Positions 1 through 34,992 of a DNA stretch of 37,969 bases are shown piece after piece. A program made the translations under genes and the position numbers. Position 1 is the stretch's first letter; each line of letters begins with the position of its first letter. The DNA comes from a virus. Lineage: Duplodnaviria; Caudoviricetes. The notes beneath the pieces are model-generated. The model did not search any database. It saw only the letters and a list, made by a program, of their open reading frames with translations, and had not been told where the DNA came from. The stretch lies in the IMG/VR virus record IMGVR_UViG_3300002515_000008, positions 1 through 37,969 of that record; one strand, given 5' to 3'.

Positions 1-36
1 CTCACGGCTACCCCGTGGCACGGGGCCCTCCCGCCG

Positions 37-879
37 TCACGCGGTGGACACCATCAGGTCCGCGTCGGTGTGGTATCGCAGGTCGCCGCGCACGCTGTTG
101 CACCAGCGATGCGCAGTGCGCAGGTTGCTGTCGGCGTCACTCCCACCTTGCGAGCGCGGGATGATGTGGTCGAGTGATGGGTACCAGTCTCCGTGCTGTG
201 CGTCGGCGTTGTGGTCAACGGGCTCTCCGCATATCTGGCACGTGTGACTGTCGCGCTCGTAGATACGCAACCTGCGTCGCCCACTGATAGCCCAGTGTCT
301 CGGTGCCCTACCCTCGACGGGACCGAAGATCAACACGGCGCGACACTCGTGCGAACACGCCGACACGATGCCCTTGCTGTGCTTGCCCTGAGTGAACGTC
401 ATGTTGCACACTGGGCATGTGCTGATATGGATACGCGACTTGGGCCACTCGCCAGTGAGCAGCCCTTGGATGCAGGTCGGCGAGCATCCCTGTATCCTGC
501 GCGGGCGCTTCGCTAGGAACAGCTCACCGCAGGCTTCGCACCGTTCCCACTTGGCGTAGCAGGTGTCGTGGCGCTCGAACACAGCGCACTCGGGCGAGCA
601 TGTCGTGCGCTCGTATCCCTTGACCGCCTCGAACTCAGCGCCACACGCCACGCACTCGCGCGTCTCACGCATTGCAGCACGCACATACCCGCGTTGCTTG
701 TCGGCGTTGACTTCCTGCCACCGTTGCTTCTGCGCGTAGTGAGCGGCCATGCGCTTGGGGTCAGCAGCACGCGCTAGAGTGGCCGCCTTGATCGCGCACG
801 GCTTGGAGCAGTAGCACTTCTGCTTGTCGCTCAGGGGATCGCCACAGACAACGCACGTCTGGGTGGTAGACTGCTCCAT
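37..879 (-). CDS. HNH endonuclease with several N-terminal CxxC/CSxxC zinc-finger repeats (280 aa)
   Basis: C-terminus IYERDSHTCQICG...SLDHIIPRSQGGSDADSNLRTAHRWCN is an HNH motif. Four CxxC...CSxxC units precede it. Start moved to ATG 879 (MEQSTT), which follows SD GAGGGG. Confidence 0.85.
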   Translation of the reverse strand: MEQSTTQTCVVCGDPLSDKQKCYCSKPCAIKAATLARAADPKRMAAHYAQKQRWQEVNADKQRGYVRAAMRETRECVACGAEFEAVKGYERTTCSPECAVFERHDTCYAKWERCEACGELFLAKRPRRIQGCSPTCIQGLLTGEWPKSRIHISTCPVCNMTFTQGKHSKGIVSACSHECRAVLIFGPVEGRAPRHWAISGRRRLRIYERDSHTCQICGEPVDHNADAQHGDWYPSLDHIIPRSQGGSDADSNLRTAHRWCNSVRGDLRYHTDADLMVSTA

Positions 880-975
880 GTCGCAACCCCTCAGCGGGTT
901 CGGCCACGGTCCCGGCAGTTCCACCTGCGCGGGGCCACTCTGTACGCTCACATTGTAGCATCGCGGGGTGACACG
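864..975. promoter_or_regulatory. Conserved HNH-associated regulatory cassette, copy 1 (sense promoter, structured leader, antisense promoter)
   Basis: Minus strand: GTGTC-12nt-TACAAT with extended TG (952-974) and two hairpins. Plus strand: TGgTAGACT at 864-872. Aligns end to end with 6275-6387. Confidence 0.75.
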
Positions 976-1002
976 ACCTGCGGTTTCTCAGCACTCCCGT
1001 GC

Positions 1003-1191
1003 TCACTTCTCCGGCTTCATGTGCGACTGACAGCCTGGCGGCTCCATGTCGCCCGTCGTGTCGAGCCGCTCGCTTGGTTCGCCGCGGTCTATCCAGCAGC
1101 GCCATAGGTGCCACGTCTCGCCCTGTGTTGACGTGCGGTCGTGCATCGTGTGCCAACAGCAGGACGCGCACGTGCCGTGGGGACAGGGCAT
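1003..1191 (-). CDS. Small Cys/His-rich hypothetical protein (62 aa)
   Basis: ATG 1191 (MPCPHGTCASCC) with SD GGGAG; fills the gap between two HNH genes. Confidence 0.5.
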   Translation of the reverse strand: MPCPHGTCASCCWHTMHDRTSTQGETWHLWRCWIDRGEPSERLDTTGDMEPPGCQSHMKPEK

Positions 1192-1201
1192 GTGCGTCTC
1201 C

Positions 1202-1489
1202 CTACTCGATGATGCCGGGGTGCCTTCCCTCGCTCGGGTACCGCGTCGTCTTGCGTACCCTTGCCGCGTTCGCCTGTTGCGCTGTGAGTCGCTTGTGGTG
1301 CCAGTCGCACACGCTACGCAGGTTCGCATCGCTGTGGTCGTTCGCGTCGCCTAGGTGGTGGACATCCGTCGCTGCCTGCGGGCATCGCGTACCATCCGAG
1401 CGGATGATCGTGCATCGTCCACCGTCTCGGTCGAGGATGCGCTTGCGGGTGCTCGACCAGCCCGGCGGGAGCGGCGCCGATCTCCACAT
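1202..1489 (-). CDS. Packaging-associated HNH endonuclease, HK97 gp74-like (95 aa)
   Basis: MWRSAPLPPGWSSTRKRILDRDGGRC...ATDVHH...DHSDANLRSVCDWHHKRLT is the typical actinophage HNH found upstream of terminase; SD AGGAG. Confidence 0.85.
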   Translation of the reverse strand: MWRSAPLPPGWSSTRKRILDRDGGRCTIIRSDGTRCPQAATDVHHLGDANDHSDANLRSVCDWHHKRLTAQQANAARVRKTTRYPSEGRHPGIIE

Positions 1490-2805
1490 GGCGCTCCTAT
1501 CCCGAGCTTCTCCCACTTGGCGCGCATGTACCCTGTGATTCGCTCGCGGTTGGTCGTGGCGTGCGTCACGAGTGAGTCGCCATGCTTGCGGTAGAGCAGC
1601 AGCGCCGCGTCCACTGTGGCGACGGTGGCCCCGTGTGCGACCATGCGGACCCACATGTCCCAATCCTCGAAGCCGTCCGTCATGTCATCGTCGTAGCCGC
1701 CGACTGCTTCCCACGCCTTGCGCATGAACATAGAAGCGCAGCACGCGCGATTGCCCGACATGAAGTCACTCAGCGTGGTGCCGCTCGGGAGCTTGACGAG
1801 TCGGTCGGTGTCGCCGAACTCCTGCATGTGGCTACGGACGATTCCGCCTGTGGATGCAGCGAGCATTCGCTCCACTGCGTCGGGTGTGAGCTTGTCGTCG
1901 GCGTCGAGTGGCAGGATGTAGTCGCATGTGGCGGCGCGGATACCGGCGTTGCGCGCAGCGGACAGCCCCTTGTTGCGCTGACTCACCAGCACCACATTCG
2001 GGTATCGCCGCGCGACCTTGCTTGTGCCGTCGGGACTGCCGTCGTCTACTACGATGACCTCACACGGAAGCGTCTGCGCAAGTGCTGACTCTATCGCGTC
2101 GGGCAGCCAGTGCGCCTGCTTGTAGCAGGGGATGACGATGGAGCACACCGGGCCGCTCGAAATGTAGTCGGTCCAGGGGCGAGTGATCGCGGGGACTTGC
2201 TTGATGTCGTGGCACGCGATGTTGGCGGGTTTGGCGTTCCACCCGTTCATCTTGATGTGGCGGCACTCTACATCCGGTAGCACCTGGAGCGTCACGCCCG
2301 CTGCGCGCAGTGCCTTCCCGAAGTACAGGTCGTGTCCGCCGCGCGTGTTGGGCTTGTCGTTGGGCGTGAAGAACGCCAGCCCCCGATGCTTGACGACGGT
2401 AAGGTTGCCGGTGCACGCGAAGTACGGCCGATTGATTCGTGAGAACACGGACGCGCGGATCAACGTGCAGCCCAGCCCCGTCCACGCCACTCCGGGAGCG
2501 TGTGCGTTCGTGAACCCGATGCAGGTGTGCCCGTCACCCAATGGGTAGTCGACGGCGATGTAGTCCACGTTCGCATTGAGCATGGCGTCCAGCACGCCGG
2601 GAGGCGGCACCGTGTCCTCTTCGACTATCCAGAGCCAATCGGCGCCGGAGTCCAGTGCGCGGGCCACGAGGTGGTTCATGCAGTCGGGCAAGCCCTCGTC
2701 TATCGTTGTGAGAAGCGTCCACTCATGGCCTGCGCAGTTGTCCACCACTCCTTGCATCACTTCGGTGAACACGATGCCACGTGTGGGGATGCAGACGGCT
2801 ATCAC
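1351..2805 (-). CDS. Two-domain GT-A/GT2 glycosyltransferase (~484 aa)
   Basis: N-domain: IAVCIPTRG, WIVEED, TGLGCTLI, GHDLYF, CRH. C-domain is canonical GT2: SIVIPCY, VIVVDDGSPD, NKGLSAARNAG, PLDADD, EDWDMW. GTGA overlap with the upstream gene. Confidence 0.9.
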   Translation of the reverse strand: MIAVCIPTRGIVFTEVMQGVVDNCAGHEWTLLTTIDEGLPDCMNHLVARALDSGADWLWIVEEDTVPPPGVLDAMLNANVDYIAVDYPLGDGHTCIGFTNAHAPGVAWTGLGCTLIRASVFSRINRPYFACTGNLTVVKHRGLAFFTPNDKPNTRGGHDLYFGKALRAAGVTLQVLPDVECRHIKMNGWNAKPANIACHDIKQVPAITRPWTDYISSGPVCSIVIPCYKQAHWLPDAIESALAQTLPCEVIVVDDGSPDGTSKVARRYPNVVLVSQRNKGLSAARNAGIRAATCDYILPLDADDKLTPDAVERMLAASTGGIVRSHMQEFGDTDRLVKLPSGTTLSDFMSGNRACCASMFMRKAWEAVGGYDDDMTDGFEDWDMWVRMVAHGATVATVDAALLLYRKHGDSLVTHATTNRERITGYMRAKWEKLGIGAPCGDRRRSRRAGRAPASASSTETVDDARSSARMVRDARRQRRMSTT

Positions 2806-3401
2806 GGCCACAGCACCCCGTTCTCGGTCATGTGACCGCATACGCATCCGAAGTCGACCACGAGCGGCCGTATCTGCGTCGTGAGTTCCTTGTCCACGGG
2901 TCCGGGGCCGTCACCGAGCGGGGCCCTGTACGCCTCGCCCGTCGTGAGCAGACAGCCGAGACCACAGCCGCTGACCGGGACAACGCCCGCTCCCATGCGC
3001 GTGATGCCGTAGAGCACCGGGCGCCGTGACTCGTGACGCGCGATCTGGATGCCCGTCGCGTTGGGGCCTGCCGCACTCAGCCGCGCATGGATGTCGGGCG
3101 GTACGAGGATGTCGTCTTCGATGCACAACACCGGCCCGTCACCGACGAGCGTCTGCGTGTACTTGACCATCGCCCTATGGCGCGGGCGTCTGTCTACGCG
3201 GCCCTCGGGCGGGTACTCGTTGCGCGTGACGTGCAGCTCGACGTCGAACCCGAGCTCGTACAGCGATGTCTCCCACAGCGCACAGCCGGGCGCGTCGAGC
3301 ACGAGGATGCAACGCTCTCGCGGGATGTCTGATGCTGCGAGAGCGTTGCATACGGCCTCGCGTGTCCACGGGCGTATCACGGACAGCAGGAGCGTCAGCA
3401 T
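2802..3401 (-). CDS. Divergent GT-A fold glycosyltransferase (199 aa)
   Basis: VLCIEDDILVPPD (DxD-like), GCGLGCLL and VCGH mirror the N-domain of the adjacent GT. Confidence 0.7.
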   Translation of the reverse strand: MLTLLLSVIRPWTREAVCNALAASDIPRERCILVLDAPGCALWETSLYELGFDVELHVTRNEYPPEGRVDRRPRHRAMVKYTQTLVGDGPVLCIEDDILVPPDIHARLSAAGPNATGIQIARHESRRPVLYGITRMGAGVVPVSGCGLGCLLTTGEAYRAPLGDGPGPVDKELTTQIRPLVVDFGCVCGHMTENGVLWP

Positions 3402-3718
3402 CGGTGCAATACTGGCAGCCCTGTGTACTCCCAATCCTGCACGAGCGTTGCGGCAGCCCACGCCCTGCATATCTCATCATCGCTCCGAATCGGATACGGA
3501 ATCGCGTAACGAGGCTCCGCGATGAGCGACTGCAAGTTGTGCCACCATGTGTGAGGGTAGGCCTTGGCATACGGGCGACAATGGATGCACTGATGTGCGG
3601 TCTTGTCCTCGGGCTGGATGTCGAACACGTCGTGGCACATCGAGCACACTCGCTCACCCGGCTGGATACCTTCTGCCTCTTCTTCTCCGTAGACTTCGGC
3701 GAGCTCCCAGTCAGACAT
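3395..3718 (-). CDS. Hypothetical protein with CxxC...CxxC zinc ribbon (107 aa)
   Basis: CSMC...CIHC; overlaps both neighbours. Confidence 0.6.
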   Translation of the reverse strand: MSDWELAEVYGEEEAEGIQPGERVCSMCHDVFDIQPEDKTAHQCIHCRPYAKAYPHTWWHNLQSLIAEPRYAIPYPIRSDDEICRAWAAATLVQDWEYTGLPVLHRC

Positions 3719-3935
3719 TGGGCCAGCCTCCGACGAGCAGGTGATTCCGTATCGCTTCTGCGTCGTCGGCCTCGTCGAGACGTTCGTATGCGTCCTCGAG
3801 GGTCAGCGGGGGATTGTCGTAGTAGGGGGCGTGTGTCTGGGGCCAGTCGCCCACGGTCGGCACGGTCGGGTGAAGATACATCCGCCCGAAACATGGGCCG
3901 TGGTCGACTACGCCTGTGCCCGTGTACTCGATCAT
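3711..3935 (-). CDS. Hypothetical protein (74 aa)
   Basis: ATG 3935 (MIEYTG) with SD GGGAGG, downstream of the leader terminator. The ORF-track start at 4025 lies in the promoter. Confidence 0.6.
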   Translation of the reverse strand: MIEYTGTGVVDHGPCFGRMYLHPTVPTVGDWPQTHAPYYDNPPLTLEDAYERLDEADDAEAIRNHLLVGGWPNV

Positions 3936-3960
3936 GTACGCCTCCCGGCTGATCGCGGAC

Positions 3961-3990
3961 AACAGAAAGGCCCGCACGATGGCGGACCTC
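3961..3990 (-). terminator. Intrinsic terminator or attenuator in the leader
   Basis: Minus strand GAGGUCCGC-caucgu-GCGGGCCUU followed by UCUGUU. Confidence 0.6.
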
Positions 3991-4023
3991 TGCGGAGGTA
4001 TTAGATGCACCTCCTCCAATATC

Positions 4024-4052
4024 ATTTTCTCTTATTGACAAGCATCTGTCAA
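4024..4052 (-). promoter_or_regulatory. Sigma70-type promoter whose -35 lies inside an inverted repeat
   Basis: TTGACA (4052-4047), 17 nt, GAAAAT (4029-4024), in an AT-rich island. Palindrome TTGACA-N6-TGTCAA at 4035-4052. Confidence 0.6.
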
Positions 4053-4064
4053 CATCTAGTGGGT

Positions 4065-4409
4065 CTAGTGGGTTTCGCGCTCGTCACCTACCGCATATAG
4101 TGCGCGGAGCATCTCAGCCGTCTCCGATTTGTCGGCCATGACGACGCGATGAGCCGCACCCGCATCCTTGGGCCGCGCGATGTCCAGTTCGTGCCGCACA
4201 TCCCTGATCGTCGCTTGCAGGATGCTCACCACGCAGTTGACGGTATGCAAGCACTGTTGCCGGCCGGGGGAGCGACTCGACGGCTTGCCCGACGCCCTAC
4301 CGACGTTGCCGCCACGGGTCGATGGGTGGTTGTAGAGCGCCACTGTGGCGATATCCGCATACAGTTCCGCCATCAGATTGTCGAGCCGTGTCTCGCCGGT
4401 CGGGATCAC
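4065..4409 (-). CDS. Hypothetical protein (114 aa), last gene before the putative late promoter
   Basis: GTG start with GTGA overlap on the upstream stop; function inferred from position only. Confidence 0.6.
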   Translation of the reverse strand: MIPTGETRLDNLMAELYADIATVALYNHPSTRGGNVGRASGKPSSRSPGRQQCLHTVNCVVSILQATIRDVRHELDIARPKDAGAAHRVVMADKSETAEMLRALYAVGDERETH

Positions 4410-4615
4410 GAGCGGCTCCTCTCCAGGATGCTGGCAGCGTGGGCCCATTCCACAATGAACACGTGGGATGACTCATCCATCGCCCGCGCTTCTGCGAAGC
4501 AGTCGGGACACAGGTCCGCGTTGTATGCCGTCTCCCACGCGTAGGGCTCGTTCTCGGCCCGGTTCTCGCGCACTACCAGCCCGCAATGGTCGCATGTGAA
4601 GTCAACAGTTCTCAC
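4406..4615 (-). CDS. Small zinc-finger protein (69 aa)
   Basis: TCDHCG...DLCPDC; GTGA overlaps at both ends. Confidence 0.65.
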   Translation of the reverse strand: MRTVDFTCDHCGLVVRENRAENEPYAWETAYNADLCPDCFAEARAMDESSHVFIVEWAHAASILERSRS

Positions 4616-4944
4616 AAGGCCGCTCGGTCGCAAGGTGCCCATCCGTCCATGTCGAGCGCGATCTCGTACTTGGTGGGAACGTCGGTCAGCAGGTACTCCC
4701 ACCCGTCGTTCCAGCGCGGGTGCAACCGCTTGTCCTCGGCAAGACCGTGGCAGCCGGCCGTCCCGTGCCCGCACAAGTCCCACACGGGGCCGTGAAGCCC
4801 TCCCTGCGACCTCGGGACCAGATGGTGCCCGGTGACACCCGGAGTGCCGCATACGACGCAGCACGCGTCCCTGCGGCCGTTGGGGCCACCCTCGAAGGTA
4901 CGCATGCTGGGCTTGTCCATGAGCGCGGCAAGGAGGAGGTTCAC
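4612..4944 (-). CDS. HNH/His-Me finger nuclease-like protein (110 aa)
   Basis: CVVCG...HHLVPRSQGG...LCGHGTAGCHG. Confidence 0.75.
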   Translation of the reverse strand: MNLLLAALMDKPSMRTFEGGPNGRRDACCVVCGTPGVTGHHLVPRSQGGLHGPVWDLCGHGTAGCHGLAEDKRLHPRWNDGWEYLLTDVPTKYEIALDMDGWAPCDRAAL

Positions 4945-5405
4945 GACGGGCCTCCGTCGAGTTCAGCGAGCGCCCGCCGAAGTCCCGCGTAGTTGGAGCG
5001 CGGCGATGCAGAGAACAACGGCTTGCCGTCGAGCGGCCCCGGCTCCACGATGCGCCGTGCCTCCCGCACAACCTCCCGCAGCCGTTCGCACTCGGCTTCG
5101 GCTTCACGCAGGCGGCACTCCAGGTCGTCGTCGTGCTCCGGACCGCCCCACTTCGCATCCTGCTTCGCACGCTCGTCCAACACAGAGCGAAGCGCGGGAG
5201 ACTCCAGCGCATCCACGCGCTCGCGGGGGATGAGTGAGCCGTCTGCGTAGCCGTTGCGGAGGGCGAGGTGGAACACATGACGAGCATCCTGCCATGCGGT
5301 GACAACATGTGCCGCCTCTGCTTGTGGGGCGTCCACGCTGAGCGCACGCATGGCGTCCTCAGCAGCCGTAGCCGCAGCAGAGAGCGCGAAAAGGTCGTCA
5401 CTCAT
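4941..5405 (-). CDS. Hypothetical coiled-coil protein (154 aa)
   Basis: ATG 5405 with SD GAGGAGG; contains ERAKQDAKWGG and the coiled coil LREAEAECERLRE. Confidence 0.65.
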   Translation of the reverse strand: MSDDLFALSAAATAAEDAMRALSVDAPQAEAAHVVTAWQDARHVFHLALRNGYADGSLIPRERVDALESPALRSVLDERAKQDAKWGGPEHDDDLECRLREAEAECERLREVVREARRIVEPGPLDGKPLFSASPRSNYAGLRRALAELDGGPS

Positions 5406-5709
5406 CGGTGGCCTCCTCAATATCGTGCGTGTGTTCCCATATGGTTTCCGGCTCGTACATCGGCTCATGTTCGGCCCGATGGCGGTTATCGCGGCAGCCG
5501 CTATTTGAGGGCGCTGGCATACCGGGGCCGATATCGTCGTTTGGATAGGTTGGCTTCCGGGAGCAAGCGACGATTGCGGCGTACGGGCAGCGGTAGTGGT
5601 ACTTGCACGAGGGGAGTTGCGCCGTGAGCCTCGCCACTTCCGCCTCCGCTGCTATGCGGGCTGCTTCGAGTTCGGAAACCTTGCGTTCCAGGTCGGTGAT
5701 CTTGCTCAT
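5398..5709 (-). CDS. Hypothetical protein with N-terminal coiled coil (103 aa)
   Basis: ATGA overlap with the HNH stop; SD GGAGGG. Confidence 0.65.
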   Translation of the reverse strand: MSKITDLERKVSELEAARIAAEAEVARLTAQLPSCKYHYRCPYAAIVACSRKPTYPNDDIGPGMPAPSNSGCRDNRHRAEHEPMYEPETIWEHTHDIEEATDE

Positions 5710-6290
5710 GATGTCCCTCCGCCTATCGCTGCATTGCGCCAACGCCGTCCCGCCGCGATGTCCCTGATTGTGCAGGCGGTCACTCCATATGCCCGCGCTA
5801 TATCGTTCGGGCTCGCGGTTGGCAGCAATGCCCGTATCTCGGCGATGTCACTCTCGCGGAGTTTGGCGTTCGCTCCGCGACGGGTGTTCTCGGTGGACGT
5901 CACCGCTTCGAGATGCGAGGGCCGAACGCAAGACCGCACGCGGCACAGGTGATCGAGCTGGAGCCCATCCGGGACGGGGCCGTTTGCGCGCTCCCAATAG
6001 ACGATGTGAGCGCGTCGGTGGTTATCACCGGACCCTCCGCCCAGATACCCGTACCCGTGCAGCACAGCCCGCTGCCATACCCAGCAGGGAGTGAGGTAGC
6101 CGTGATCTTCTTCGATGTACTCGACGGGGGATCGGCGCGCGTTGTGGCCGTGGATGTACCGCATTGGCTGGCCCTTGACCCGCCCCCGCGCGGTGGTTGT
6201 GTGGGGCGCGATTGAGGTCCGCTCACCGCAACCGCACATGCACAAGCCGGAGGGGTTCGGGCCTAGGAGGGTAGTGCTAGAATCGTGCAT
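5706..6290 (-). CDS. HNH homing endonuclease (HNH_3-like) with C-terminal HTH (194 aa)
   Basis: LCMCGCG N-domain; CWVW...GYG...RAH...LDHLCRVRSCVRPSHLEAVTSTEN; AKLRESDIAEIR...IARAYGVT HTH. An alternative in-frame start exists at 6395. Confidence 0.9.
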   Translation of the reverse strand: MHDSSTTLLGPNPSGLCMCGCGERTSIAPHTTTARGRVKGQPMRYIHGHNARRSPVEYIEEDHGYLTPCWVWQRAVLHGYGYLGGGSGDNHRRAHIVYWERANGPVPDGLQLDHLCRVRSCVRPSHLEAVTSTENTRRGANAKLRESDIAEIRALLPTASPNDIARAYGVTACTIRDIAAGRRWRNAAIGGGTS

Positions 6291-6387
6291 GTCGCATCCT
6301 CTCAACAGGATCGGCCACGCCACCGGAGGTTCGCGCCTCGCGGTGGCACTCTTTGCGCCTCCCATTGTAGCATTCGGGACCGACACG
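6275..6387. promoter_or_regulatory. Conserved HNH-associated regulatory cassette, copy 2
   Basis: Minus strand: GTGTC-12nt-TACAAT (6364-6386). Plus strand: TGcTAGAAT at 6275-6283. Same spacings as copy 1. Confidence 0.75.
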
Positions 6388-6549
6388 CTAGGCATGTTCG
6401 TAGCCTCCTGCTTCCGTCGCCGGTACCCAGTTCGCGGGATCGTTGCGCGGGTCGAAGTCGGCGGCGGATTCGTCGGCGAGCGGTTCGGCGTCGAGGTCGG
6501 GCTCGAGCGGTTCGTCGATGCGGTACTCGTCCATCGTGTAGTCGCTCAT
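6388..6549 (-). CDS. Highly acidic microprotein (53 aa), absent from the ORF track
   Basis: MSDYTMDEYRIDEPLEPDLDAEPLADESAADFDPRNDPANWVPATEAGGYEHA; ATGA overlap and upstream SD AAGGGAG. Confidence 0.65.
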   Translation of the reverse strand: MSDYTMDEYRIDEPLEPDLDAEPLADESAADFDPRNDPANWVPATEAGGYEHA

Positions 6550-7070
6550 GCCACGCACGCTCCCTTCCGATGTGGTGTCACGTCGCCGGCCGCGCGATGC
6601 GGTCGCGCCTCATAGCACGGCGCGCAGTAGAGCGCATGCGGACGTCGGTGCGAGATGTCGCATCCGCAGATGGCGCACAGACGCGGCCCCTCGGGGTAGC
6701 GCGACTTCGCGGCGGTCTGGACGTAGGTGGCGCCCGAAGCGGTGCGGCGGCCGCGACACGTGCCGCAGTAGATGGCGTAGGAACTCCTGCTCGAGATGTC
6801 CGCGCCGCACCCCTTGCACAGCCGCTGGCCCTGCTGCGGCAACGCTTGCCCGCGCGGGACACGCTGCTTGCGCACGCCCGCGTACCCGGCCTTGCGCACG
6901 AGACGCCCCTCGCTGATGCTGAGGATGACGCACTCGGAATGCGGCGCCGTCGGGTCGCTGTACGCGGCACAGGACCGACAACGCTTCACGCTGTCGGCCT
7001 CGGCTGCGAGCGACATGCCGAGCGAAAGCGGCACTACGGCGAAGCCCTTGGGCTGGTATGCCATCGCCAT
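6546..7070 (-). CDS. Protein with tandem zinc-finger repeats (174 aa)
   Basis: Two copies of RLCxxCGxDISxR---AxYCxxC. Confidence 0.65.
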   Translation of the reverse strand: MAMAYQPKGFAVVPLSLGMSLAAEADSVKRCRSCAAYSDPTAPHSECVILSISEGRLVRKAGYAGVRKQRVPRGQALPQQGQRLCKGCGADISSRSSYAIYCGTCRGRRTASGATYVQTAAKSRYPEGPRLCAICGCDISHRRPHALYCAPCYEARPHRAAGDVTPHRKGACVA

Positions 7071-14606: not shown

Positions 14607-14635
14607 ATACTAAATCCGTGACGCGCCCATGTCAA
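14607..14635 (-). promoter_or_regulatory. Early sigma70-type promoter with an overlapping TGAC-N8-GTCA palindrome
   Basis: TTGACA (14635-14630), 17 nt, TAGTAT (14612-14607). Confidence 0.8.
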
Positions 14636-19950: not shown

Positions 19951-21384
19951 CTAGGCCCCTATCGTCGGCGTGTCGGTCGCGTAGGAGCGCACAAGCTCGG
20001 TCACGCGCTTCATCGTGAGCAGCGGCGGGTCGAACGTCGGGTCGTGCGCCCACACACCGTCGCCGAGACGGACGCGCTCCTCGCTGTACGGGTGCGCCTT
20101 GTGCGACGGGTCGCGGGAGAACATCTGCTCGAGCAGCACGGGATCGACCTCGAACGTGACGGCGGGTTCGCAGGTGAGCAGGCCAGCCTTGTAGGTCGCG
20201 TGGATGAGGGCTTCGGCGGACACGATGTCCGGGTTGTTGTAGACGCCCTCGATGATTCCCCACCGCTCGATGGAGTCAGGGAAGTCGATGTAGTCCACGC
20301 CGGCAGGCTTGTCGCAGGGGTCTCCGCCCGCAAGCGACCAGGCGATGTTGGTGAACGTGACGAAGTTACCGCGGTCGTCGGCCTTGCCCGCTCCGAGCAG
20401 ACGCGTGATGACGCCGATCGAGTCCGACGTGCGTTTCGCGCCCCGCAGGTTCTTCGACCACTCGAAAGTGACGTTGATGTCCTGCCCGATGCGCTTCACC
20501 ATGTCGATGTAGCGATGCGTGATGACGCTCCCGTTGAAGGTCACGCGGAACGCCACTTCGAGGGCGGCCGTCGTGGCGAGGATGCCGATTGCCTCGCCGG
20601 CGCTCTGCATCTCGCGGTACTCGATGTCGTAGCTTCCCGCGTCCTCGATCTCACCGACCTCCCACCGGCTGCCCGCCAGAAGCCCGGCGGCGATGGTGTC
20701 CGGCGACGAAGCGGCGTAGGTCGCGGGCCGCACGATGCGTCCGCGAAGTTCCTGTGCGGCGTTCTCGGCGTGGACGACCTTGTACCGCTTCTCGCCCTCG
20801 CGCACGTCATCGACCGTGACGATGCGCAGGTAGCGAAACTCACCGTCGTCGTTGCGAATCAGGATGGGCGCCTGGTCTGTGACGTACACAGAATCGGCGT
20901 GTGTCGACTCACACGTGAAGTCATACGTGAGGACGCCGGTGAGGTCCTCGGTGTGCGTGTCCGCCCAGAACCTGCACGGTGCGCCGTCATAGCCGCCCTG
21001 CGCGTTTGAGAGCACACACACGGCCTTGTCGTCGCTGTCGAGCACGATGACGACGGGCGTGGTGGTGGATGGAGCGGTGAGCGGCGCGGCGAGCGTATCG
21101 AACTCGGCGTCCGCGCCGTAGGACGTGCCGACGCTGTTTGTGGCGTAGGCGCGGTAGTGGAAGTGCGTCGACTCCGTGAGCGGAGTCATGGACGCGGTGT
21201 ACGTGCCCGTCGTGCCCGCTGCCGCTGCCTTGCTGTCGCCCGTGGTCGGGTTCGCGCTCGCGCCCCAACACACGCCGCGCTCGGTGACGGTCGCGCCGCC
21301 GTCGGAGGTGACGTTGCCGTTTCCTGTGGCGGTGGTCTGCGCGATGGACGACGCGGCTGCGGTGGTTACGGTGGGGGCGGCCAT
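19951..21384 (-). CDS. Tal-like baseplate hub / minor structural protein with N-terminal FN3-like domain (477 aa)
   Basis: SKNLRGAKR...VITRLLGAG...DKPAGVDYI and RVRLGD motifs; directly after Dit. Confidence 0.75.
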   Translation of the reverse strand: MAAPTVTTAAASSIAQTTATGNGNVTSDGGATVTERGVCWGASANPTTGDSKAAAAGTTGTYTASMTPLTESTHFHYRAYATNSVGTSYGADAEFDTLAAPLTAPSTTTPVVIVLDSDDKAVCVLSNAQGGYDGAPCRFWADTHTEDLTGVLTYDFTCESTHADSVYVTDQAPILIRNDDGEFRYLRIVTVDDVREGEKRYKVVHAENAAQELRGRIVRPATYAASSPDTIAAGLLAGSRWEVGEIEDAGSYDIEYREMQSAGEAIGILATTAALEVAFRVTFNGSVITHRYIDMVKRIGQDINVTFEWSKNLRGAKRTSDSIGVITRLLGAGKADDRGNFVTFTNIAWSLAGGDPCDKPAGVDYIDFPDSIERWGIIEGVYNNPDIVSAEALIHATYKAGLLTCEPAVTFEVDPVLLEQMFSRDPSHKAHPYSEERVRLGDGVWAHDPTFDPPLLTMKRVTELVRSYATDTPTIGA

Positions 21385-29225: not shown

Positions 29226-30379
29226 GCTCCAATCAGGTTGAGCAAGCCGCGAGATGTGCGGGTGATGAGTGGGTAGTTGACGCCACTAAGCGTCGTGAAC
29301 GACCCACCCGTCGAGTACGTCGTCCCCACGCTGTTCGTGGCGAACATGCGCCAGTAGTAGAGCGTGCCGGGCGTCAGACTCGTGATGGGCGCGGTGAACG
29401 CACCGCTGTAGGAATCACCGCCTGTCCAGAGGTTCGCCGTCGTCGGGTTCGCACTCGTGCCCCACGCAACGCCGGTTTCCGTGATAGCCGCGCCGCCGTC
29501 GCTGGTGACGTTTCCGTGGCCCGTGGCGGTGGTGGTCGTTATCGAGGTCGCTGCGGAGTCGGTGACGGTCGGGGCGGTCGCAAACCCGCTGCCAGCCCAC
29601 GAGTCGCCGCCGTACACGCCCGTCTGGTCGGCTCCCTGCTGGGTGCCGCCACTGGTCGGGTTGCCGTTGTAGACACGCAGCGTCCACGGGCCGAATCCTT
29701 GCGCGGTTGACGGCGTGATGGTCGCGGTGCCGCTGGACTCCGCTGCGTCCACGACGTTCGTGCCGTCCGTGAGGCGTGCGTAGTAGCCGGTGGGGAGCGA
29801 GGTGACGAGGATGTTGGCGCGGGTGTAGATGGCAACATCGTCAATGTTGTCACTCGAGTTCGAGACGTTGCTGATTCCGCAATACCCCGTTGTGCGCGTG
29901 GTATCGGTGACACTGATGCGGAGCGTGCCGCTCCCAGTGGCCCCAGCGGTCGCCCCGGTGTAGACCTTGATGCTCGAACCGGAGAACTCGATGCGGACGA
30001 TGGTGGTGGACGCGTCTGTCGCGTCTGAACCTAGAGCGGTAGTCCCGCCATTGACCACCCGAAGTAGCGTTATCCCGGAGGTTCCATTGTTGTAGAGCGC
30101 GTATGCGTTGTAGCCATAGTGCCCGTTGCCGCCATCGGAGCGAAACACCAACGTGCCGTACAGCCCATTCGGGCGGAACTCCACCGCTCCGTTTCCCGGG
30201 TTGGCCCCCGTGGCGACGACTACATCGTAGGAACCGTCAGCGTTATCGCCGTCCCGCGCCGTGTTGGACACGATGGAGTGCGCGGTGCCGTGCTTGTTGA
30301 GCCAGTTCGCCCCGAGCGCACCGTTCGCGCGGTTGAAGTTATCGATGAATCGTCCTGCGGTGGTGAGTGAAAGCGTCAC
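29222..30379 (-). CDS. Putative decoration protein: lectin-like beta domain plus C-terminal FN3-like domain (385 aa)
   Basis: DNFNRANGALGANW N-terminus; GNVTSDGG...LTPGTLYYWRMFATNSVGTTY C-domain. Confidence 0.65.
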   Translation of the reverse strand: MTLSLTTAGRFIDNFNRANGALGANWLNKHGTAHSIVSNTARDGDNADGSYDVVVATGANPGNGAVEFRPNGLYGTLVFRSDGGNGHYGYNAYALYNNGTSGITLLRVVNGGTTALGSDATDASTTIVRIEFSGSSIKVYTGATAGATGSGTLRISVTDTTRTTGYCGISNVSNSSDNIDDVAIYTRANILVTSLPTGYYARLTDGTNVVDAAESSGTATITPSTAQGFGPWTLRVYNGNPTSGGTQQGADQTGVYGGDSWAGSGFATAPTVTDSAATSITTTTATGHGNVTSDGGAAITETGVAWGTSANPTTANLWTGGDSYSGAFTAPITSLTPGTLYYWRMFATNSVGTTYSTGGSFTTLSGVNYPLITRTSRGLLNLIGA

Positions 30380-34689: not shown

Positions 34690-34718
34690 TTGACTCTGTA
34701 ACCGTTCCGTGCTACAAT
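34690..34718 (+). promoter_or_regulatory. Near-consensus rightward sigma70 promoter
   Basis: TTGACT, 17 nt, TACAAT with extended TG. Confidence 0.85.
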
Positions 34719-34755
34719 CCGTTGTGACATATCATCGCAACAGAAGGGAGAGGCC

Positions 34756-34992
34756 ATGCACGAGCAGTCGGAGATACCGACGTTGGTGTCGGCGCTGGTC
34801 GAGGAATATCTGGACGTGGAGCGCGCGTGGAAAGAGGGTTCGGCGGTGGCGCGCTGGTACGAGCCCGACAACATTCAGGCATGGTGCCGCAAGCTCTCGG
34901 TGCTGGCCGCGTTCGTGAAAGAGCATGAGGACATTCGCGTGACATGGAAGACAAGCGGCGTCGGGCAGATACTCGTCACGGTGTCGCGATGA
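34756..34992 (+). CDS. Hypothetical protein (78 aa), inverted operon gene 1
   Basis: SD AAGGGAGAGG after the promoter. Confidence 0.7.
   Translation: MHEQSEIPTLVSALVEEYLDVERAWKEGSAVARWYEPDNIQAWCRKLSVLAAFVKEHEDIRVTWKTSGVGQILVTVSR

Follow-up and report, generated by a model that had tools for sequence, protein, structure and literature searches.

RNA Control at the Start of Mobile and Toxic Genes

Selfish and phage genes can be held in check by an antisense RNA made within a short two-way arrangement of promoters: RNA-OUT of IS10 acts on the transposase gene, and sar of P22 (named in PMC2629481) on the antirepressor gene. Each of these systems is bound to one gene, unlike the module described here, for which Rfam holds no match. 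In E. coli, the cis-encoded small RNA SymR is complementary to the 5' end of symE, a toxic gene, and is expressed from a promoter embedded in the symE frame, with its -10 box inside the reading frame; repression is mainly at the level of translation (PMC1891008). As far as that source describes it, SymR/symE resembles the present module in having a cis-encoded RNA complementary to the 5' end and an in-frame -10 box. SymR/symE is, however, a single SOS-induced locus with a toxin of the AbrB fold and gave no Rfam match here, whereas the module serves unrelated genes of many folds.

Another form of restraint is based on the mRNA itself. Hairpins that sequester the ribosome-binding site reduce the translation of I-TevI, MobE, and SegB of T4; hairpins of this type (I-TevI, I-TevII/III, MobE, and SegB) are intramolecular, and a late promoter situated inside them lifts the block (PMC3014915). 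The likeness to the present module lies in an RNA structure that would limit translation at the start of a homing-endonuclease gene; the difference is that the description of the T4-type hairpins, to the extent given in that source, includes no antisense RNA.

The system most like the present one is scr4677 of Streptomyces coelicolor, a northern-verified antisense sRNA of around 70 nt, located where SCO4676 begins (PMC3896431, PMC2602773). By dRNA-seq, the antisense start is at 5,108,124, which is 5 nt inside SCO4676 (start at 5,108,129), and the RNA is 78 nt long (PMC4681348, PMC4895711). RACE, unlike dRNA-seq, put the 5' end 14–15 nt upstream of the start codon, which is possibly a processed end; an overexpression of scr4677 by around 3-fold changed the SCO4676 transcript subtly, RNase III was uninvolved, and the protein was undetectable (PMC3896431, PMC2602773). 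The published ribosome footprints on SCO4676 are low relative to its mRNA (0–52 versus 31–6163 normalised units), an observation that is at most suggestive. In S. coelicolor, antisense RNAs of 61–62 nt have also been mapped, with starts at offsets 0, -1, and +1 from one recombinase gene and two transposase genes; in length and offset, these are like the RNA proposed below. Two further candidates, as3252 and as4618, start 10–11 nt upstream of their genes, which is a different geometry, and were set aside.

Two Copies of the Module in One Phage Genome

The window, that is, the whole stretch of DNA analysed (37,969 nucleotides), is the 38 kb genome of a tailed phage, with a GC content of 65.6% and with ORFs mainly on the minus strand. 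An identical contig (L442) links the end of the window to its start with around 102 extra bases, which indicates that the phage genome is circular and that the first of the two genes considered here lies just upstream of the packaging genes. An integrase was not found among the 28 window ORFs scanned. HNH endonuclease gene 1 (37..879, minus strand) encodes 280 aa with a zinc-finger-like N-terminus and a C-terminal PF01844 domain (E 6e-9), and HNH endonuclease gene 2 (5706..6290, minus strand) encodes 194 aa with a CxCGCG N-terminus, a PF13392 HNH_3 domain (E 1e-16), and an HTH-like C-terminal tail. Their start ATGs are at 879 and 6290. The two proteins are thus of different HNH types, as an earlier note on this DNA had it, and the nuclease domain of each is of a homing-endonuclease fold (PF01844, PF13392; PHROG HNH families).

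That note, made from the letters of the sequence, described a structured leader of around 100 nt repeated before both genes. The repeat is real: in a blastn self-comparison of the whole window, 863–961 and 6274–6373 are 76.2% identical over 101 nt (E 5.9e-11). The alignment had been drawn from end to end over 877–975 and up to the ATG; the similarity is there, but it fades above around 961 and runs past the ATG into codons 3–5. The hairpins that were quoted are letter-perfect on the minus strand, including the bulged C, the 6-nt loops ending in GAA, and the GCGAC-ATG junction.

Inside the stretch common to the two copies lies a putative extended -10 mRNA promoter, TGCTACAAT. Its box, TGcTACAAT, is at 952..960 (minus strand) in copy 1, with a predicted mRNA start near 945, and at 6364..6372 (minus strand) in copy 2, as a motif match; the box of copy 1 is present also in the close relatives L438–L441. 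The hexamer CGTGTC is kept 12–13 nt before this box in both copies (around 969–975 and 6383–6389, minus strand) and in L440, too close to serve as a -35 element. A third perfect TGCTACAAT box occurs at 34710–34760 (plus strand), between the genes for portal and terminase, where it precedes small ORFs with a strong Shine-Dalgarno sequence (SD); these ORFs are opposite in strand to the virion genes, and the hairpin module does not follow the box. Elsewhere, the window has three sigma-70-type promoters with TTGACA at 14635, 12893, and 4052 (minus strand) and a coding repeat of 141 bp, 75% identical, in two virion-region proteins (21240–21380 and 29437–29577).

On the opposite strand, the box TAGACT (867..872, plus strand) falls within codons 3–5 of HNH gene 1 at an offset of +7, and the extended -10 box TGcTAGAAT (6275..6283, plus strand) falls within codons 3–6 of HNH gene 2. 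The antisense sRNA predicted for copy 1 occupies 880..943 (plus strand) and would be around 62–64 nt long; the covariance models match 863–947, and its start, at 878–880, was placed from the antisense -10 box and the spacing in scr4677. Its 5' hairpin (880..904, plus strand) contains the complement of the SD and consists of the second hairpin of the earlier note plus a basal stem of 4 bp, which requires a U.G pair and forms on the antisense strand only. Its 3' hairpin (908..936, plus strand), the first hairpin of that note, has 7 bp, a bulged G, 4 bp, and the loop UUCCAC; it is followed by ACUCUGU, a weak U tail, and is predicted to act as terminator and kissing loop. In copy 2, the predicted antisense sRNA (6291..6354, plus strand) has a 5' hairpin at 6291–6315, the linker CAC as in copy 1, a 3' hairpin at 6319–6347 with the loop UUCGCG, and the tail ACUCUUU. 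Some of the detail first claimed for the mRNA strand needs amendment. The stem of the first hairpin is as quoted, except that in copy 1 one position is a C.A mismatch in the mRNA but pairs as U.G on the opposite strand; the second hairpin, said to bury the SD, pairs it partly, but GAG sits in the loop.

The covariance models find these two copies in the window (55–60 bits; next best 14) and no others, and the element is absent from three other HNH genes of this phage (1202–1489, 4612–4944, and 14056–14448). A blastn search of cultured phages with the two copies gave short chance matches only. Relatives of HNH gene 1 were not found; for HNH gene 2, seven were found, of which L005 alone carries the module.

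A Family in Phages and Actinobacterial Genomes

A pattern spanning the large hairpin and the linker was used to search viral sequences and gave 111 loci, of which 90 passed a filter for an SD and a start codon and 21 were rejected; 78 were unique, and the removal by eye of two further loci as non-members left the 76 members of the later counts. Read along the mRNA strand, the common layout is a -10-like box, a purine-rich run, the large hairpin, the linker GTGGC, the SD hairpin, GAC, and the start codon. The -10-like box stands 4–29 nt ahead of the large hairpin in 60/74 members. The large hairpin has one bulged C and a loop of 6–7 nt, mostly C-nnn-AA on the mRNA strand; in three loci (L149, L221, and L441), the loop is the reverse complement of this usual form (TTTGCG, TTGGCG).

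The compensatory changes noticed between the two copies extend to the family. In the alignment of the 76 sequences, 98.6% of the cells pair and 10/16 pairs have changed on both sides, a level reached by none of 500 shuffles; this count includes an outer stem fixed by the search pattern and is uncorrected for relatedness. Among the seven closest relatives, both window copies included, 8/20 pairs are compensatory. Watson–Crick covariation is the same whichever strand is considered (8/20 pairs each).

Searches for further homologues with patterns and covariance models found members in phages and in actinobacterial genomes. A second pattern, with no constraint on the large hairpin, gave 120 genome loci; 100 were scanned with the model and 33 exceeded 40 bits. 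These 33 are mostly from Streptomyces but come also from Micromonospora, Sphaerisporangium, Gordonia, Mycobacterium, a Deinococcus plasmid, and an Acidobacteria MAG. Matches occur in at least 23 of 151 Actinomycetota genomes (one of which is the seed), and whole-genome scans of three Streptomyces genomes gave at least 7, at least 5, and at least 9. The cultured phages with the module are LilSpotty, Twonlo, EdmundFerry, Spooky, Squiddly, Malisha, Footloose, REQ2, and MinS1. A window-specific pattern matched no viral contigs, a looser window-based one gave 30 loci, of which 3 scored as members, and the first loose pattern gave mostly chance matches, 7 of its 120 loci being chosen by eye. One phage contig carries two copies (L153 and L154) before two different nucleases, with unlike loops.

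The earlier failure to assign the RNA to a known family is matched by Rfam: no model matches in the window at the gathering score, matches in 700–7000 are at the level of chance (E 3–9), and the element is unmatched in 40 member loci. Models of the C4 and c4-a1b1 type have no match in 700–7000, whether at the gathering score or with E relaxed to 10. Sequence searches of the PDB were uninformative. A search of literature listings and abstract openings, and of the papers cited here, found a description neither of this family nor of antisense control of phage HNH genes. The module is widespread in actinobacterial phages and in Streptomyces; 5' cis-antisense RNAs, its probable kind, are known, and the family is absent from Rfam.

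A -10 Box inside the Reading Frame

In addition to both window copies, 71/78 unique phage members have the motif ANNNTA beginning exactly 7 nt in from the first base of the start codon; the viral search pattern did not contain it. Within +3 to +12, it is found in 74/78 members, as against 0–3/78 in nine control windows of equal width deeper in the genes. At other SD-led starts in the same loci, it is found in 3/351. At other ORF starts of this phage, taken from uncurated ORF calls, it was found in 0/35. Reverse-complemented, ANNNTA is a TANNNT -10 box directed into the two-hairpin RNA, and TANNNT is the -10 motif at 80% of the start sites of S. coelicolor (PMC4895711).

The only fixed offsets are 7, 11, and 12 (73, 73, and 71 of 76), and residues 3–5 vary widely. 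The fixed T at offset 11 occupies the third position of its codon, where T is otherwise infrequent (11.8%). These observations count in favour of an antisense box. The box keeps a distance of 6–8 nt from the end of the hairpin in five cases with a displaced start codon, and in Streptomyces loci where the module precedes short ORFs, the in-frame box is kept in 19/22. A conserved -35 element for the antisense box was not found (at most 8/76 at any spacing). The start of the target gene contains a putative promoter on the opposite strand, recognised as a motif. The possibility that the antisense transcript encodes a leaderless peptide was considered and rejected; an antisense ATG exists only in members with an ATG start (49/76).

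The module bears also on annotation, in that it implies start codons other than those of GenBank for LilSpotty gp83 (L359:4054 instead of 3898), Spooky gp31 (L405:2563 instead of 2485), and Footloose gp16 (L407:2558 instead of 2600).

Which Strand Carries the Structured RNA

The antisense strand folds to a lower energy in 74/76 members, compared with 47/76 for control spans. In the window, the fold z-scores are -3.0 on the antisense strand versus -0.9 on the mRNA strand for copy 1 and -3.9 versus -2.9 for copy 2. Both hairpins fold on the mRNA strand too, with the SD part paired and part in a loop and with the start codon free or marginally paired.

Non-canonical pairs give a further indication. 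Where the pattern left positions of the SD hairpin unforced, A.C pairs in the mRNA, equivalent to G.U on the antisense strand, prevail by 15 to 1; the inner stem has A.C on the mRNA strand by 7 to 1, and 40 members in which the large hairpin was not fixed by the pattern have 29 A.C versus 4 G.U on this strand. The bias is modest, as shuffles already give 71% A.C (p 0.02 pooled, 0.17 and 0.07 per hairpin) and the sequences are not independent, and it is supporting rather than decisive evidence on the strand. A YUNR motif in the antisense loop is unsupported, being present in 21/76 members, against 18 on the mRNA strand. The large hairpin is strong and covarying and is followed by a pyrimidine-rich tail that is not pure U; a scan for consensus terminators did not list the 3' hairpin.

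By its position, the predicted sRNA is complementary to the leader and the ribosome-binding site. The predicted RNAs of copies 1 and 2 share no run longer than 9 nt, and their cognate duplexes, calculated at -166 and -160 kcal/mol, compare with -93 and -95 kcal/mol for the non-cognate ones; on these energies, each of the two window cassettes would target chiefly its own mRNA. In this phage, a distinct trans-acting partner for the loops is not evident; a single 9-mer match was found (26879). For L362, the one member locus queried, no public RNA runs were listed, which has no bearing on expression.

Relationship to scr4677

Elements of the scr4677 type were found with the published probe in 54/121 Streptomyces genomes, and all 20 of the 20 loci fetched have the same anatomy, with the in-frame ANNNTA at +13. 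They share with the present family an antisense sRNA over the 5' end of the gene (70–78 nt long in scr4677, predicted in the present family) and the same succession of elements: an mRNA -10 box, then a large hairpin whose 6-nt loop is C-nnn-(C/A)A, a linker, the SD hairpin, the start codon, and in-frame ANNNTA. The box, however, is at +7 in the window family instead of +13, and the stem and linker sequences differ. Moreover, scr4677 is mostly tied to SCO4676-like genes and is described, in the publications cited above, as the regulator of a single locus and not as a mobile cassette, whereas the window copies precede HNH nucleases. One scr4677-type element (L397:1538-2365, plus strand) stands before an endonuclease gene (phrog_4645), not before an SCO4676-like one.

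The models keep the two groups apart, with some contact between them. The Rfam family of scr4677, RF02673, matches 20/20 scr4677-type loci and has no match in the window or in 40 member loci. RF02673 is itself a 246-nt model that matches the mRNA strand (L384–L403), and the published sRNA has 70–78 nt and is antisense. R3, a broader family model built without scr4677, finds 14/20 scr4677-type loci in the right place and on the right strand, at 12–19 bits (E 0.02–0.6); model R1 reaches at most 12 bits on these loci. In the reverse direction, R2, the scr4677-type model, matches neither window copy and gives matches with E 0.26–0.9 at 3/30 member elements. Two loci, L430 and L437, are intermediates with the box at +10.

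From the published primer and the orthologues, the box of scr4677 would end 8 nt before the mapped start, and the same spacing in the window would, by analogy, put the start of the sRNA at the G beside the start codon.

The Genes That Follow the Module, and Its Mobility

In phages, 59 of the 76 downstream ORFs are complete within their locus, and 45 of these 59 have a nuclease domain: HNH in 12, HNH_3/His-Me in 11, endonuclease VII in 10, GIY-YIG/T5orf172 in 11, and a LAGLIDADG-like domain in 1. Of the remainder, one has an RHH domain and 13 have no domain. The picture of a portable module that travels with nucleases, put forward in the earlier note, fits these several folds and the insertion described below, but a module specific to nucleases does not fit the bacterial genomes, where only 10/45 downstream ORFs scanned encode nucleases, with one serine recombinase, one DUF6415 protein, and 33 ORFs that have no Pfam match. 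The latter are mostly short Streptomyces ORFs adjoining XRE, DUF5753, DUF6879, or GntR genes. Many copies in the Streptomyces loci L361–L383 and L242–L355 precede short unannotated ORFs, as with those that have an amphipathic start and then G-R-H-R. The module is present also within prophage-like and chromosomal islands.

Mobility of the module together with a nuclease is observed in one case. In the Gordonia phage Twonlo, compared with Kwekel, the module and its HNH gene form a single insertion of 598 bp, put in place of 3 bp close to where a host gene ends. The segment opens around 30 bp ahead of the large hairpin, and at its far end the HNH frame is joined to the last codons of the host gene; the empty allele exists in Kwekel, Chickadee, and Tiamoceli, which are 99% identical. 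For the two copies in the window, a search for an empty allele found none; the close relative L440 carries a cassette like copy 2 at a different genomic site.

A Probable Antisense Brake and Its Alternatives

Two boxes at a fixed spacing, covarying hairpins, full complementarity, and the joint insertion of a module and an HNH gene in a relative are what is seen directly. The reading preferred here, to which we give a probability of roughly 0.6, is that the cassette yields both the mRNA and a short antisense RNA; by pairing with the leader, the latter would keep ribosomes from loading and so give a selfish gene a built-in brake independent of position. The structured RNA had at first been taken to be simply the mRNA leader. 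It is better read as a cis-antisense sRNA because of the -10 box on the opposite strand in codons 3–5, the better folding of the antisense strand, and the published antisense RNA of the look-alike family. Antisense transcription itself is very probable, and the pairing step is less certain.

The upstream promoter-like box would drive the nuclease mRNA, and the box in codons 3–5 would drive, on the opposite strand, an antisense RNA of around 62 nt, which the housekeeping polymerase would start roughly at the base adjoining the start codon. This RNA would end after the 3' hairpin, which might also shield upstream host genes from antisense read-through. Its variable loop of 6–7 nt (UU-nnn-G in the sRNA, C-nnn-AA in the mRNA) could seed the pairing, and each cassette, given a variable loop as seed, would then mainly silence its own mRNA, the duplex of sRNA and mRNA blocking ribosome loading. 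The purpose is likely to be a short burst of nuclease on entry into the cell, before the antisense RNA accumulates, followed by throttling at any landing site.

One alternative is that transcription as such from the in-frame antisense promoter weakens the mRNA promoter, the large hairpin being a terminator and the RNA a by-product. The two promoters do face each other around 80 nt apart, and scr4677 in trans only subtly affected its target (PMC3896431). Such interference has a small chance of being right, as a terminator needs no conserved loop, yet one of 6–7 nt, mostly C-nnn-AA, is kept here, and the basal stem of the 5' hairpin forms solely on the antisense strand. It is improbable, too, that the element is a cis-acting mRNA leader in which the second hairpin hides the SD as in I-TevI, with no antisense RNA. 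That explanation can draw on the folding of both hairpins on the mRNA strand, on the partial pairing of the SD, and on the lowered translation of I-TevI, MobE, and SegB by such hairpins (PMC3014915); it leaves the in-frame ANNNTA (71/78 versus 3/351) unexplained and is at odds with the weaker folding of the mRNA strand. Moreover, the I-TevI mechanism invoked in the earlier note needs a late promoter inside the hairpin, and no -10 match that could release it was found inside the hairpin, the only mRNA -10 match found being upstream of both hairpins. An mRNA hairpin may nevertheless add to the brake besides the antisense RNA.

The geometry shared with SymE/SymR (PMC1891008) raises the question of a type I toxin–antitoxin or abortive infection system, in which a stable mRNA and an unstable antisense RNA would let the nuclease kill on loss of the element or when another phage shuts off host transcription. 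The nucleases are potentially toxic, and the module occurs in prophage-like and chromosomal islands; however, the Twonlo cassette looks like the product of homing into a host gene for which an empty allele exists, and many downstream ORFs encode small proteins, a recombinase, or DNA-binding proteins, which makes such a system quite unlikely. Hardly to be expected is that the inverted repeats and ANNNTA form a site at the DNA level, an operator or insertion signal for a protein: although the loop is turned round in a few members, so that both orientations occur, and the module lies at the border of a mobile unit, an RNA accords with the fixed bulge and with substitutions of the G.U type, the downstream proteins are without a common DNA-binding domain, and the box is an exact match to the -10 consensus.

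Implications for Mobile Endonucleases and for Streptomyces

A broader proposal extends the antisense brake to intron-less homing endonucleases of unrelated folds (HNH, endonuclease VII, GIY-YIG, and LAGLIDADG-like) in actinobacterial phages, which would carry an antisense safety catch within their mobile unit. The variable loop would then be an address code, such that the nuclease fires in cells without the same cassette and is silenced in cells with it, and Streptomyces chromosomes would have recruited the device many times, scr4677 being a derived branch. This proposal is tentative and, as it stands, rather doubtful.

How free-standing endonuclease genes avoid doing harm at new sites is known mainly from the hairpins of T4. 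If the present reading is true, an antisense cassette common to unrelated nuclease folds would be a different and general answer to the harm of landing. The module would also correct the calling of start codons in phage annotation. For Streptomyces, it would provide a reading for several unannotated antisense sRNAs per genome and would place scr4677, until now an orphan, in a wider class.
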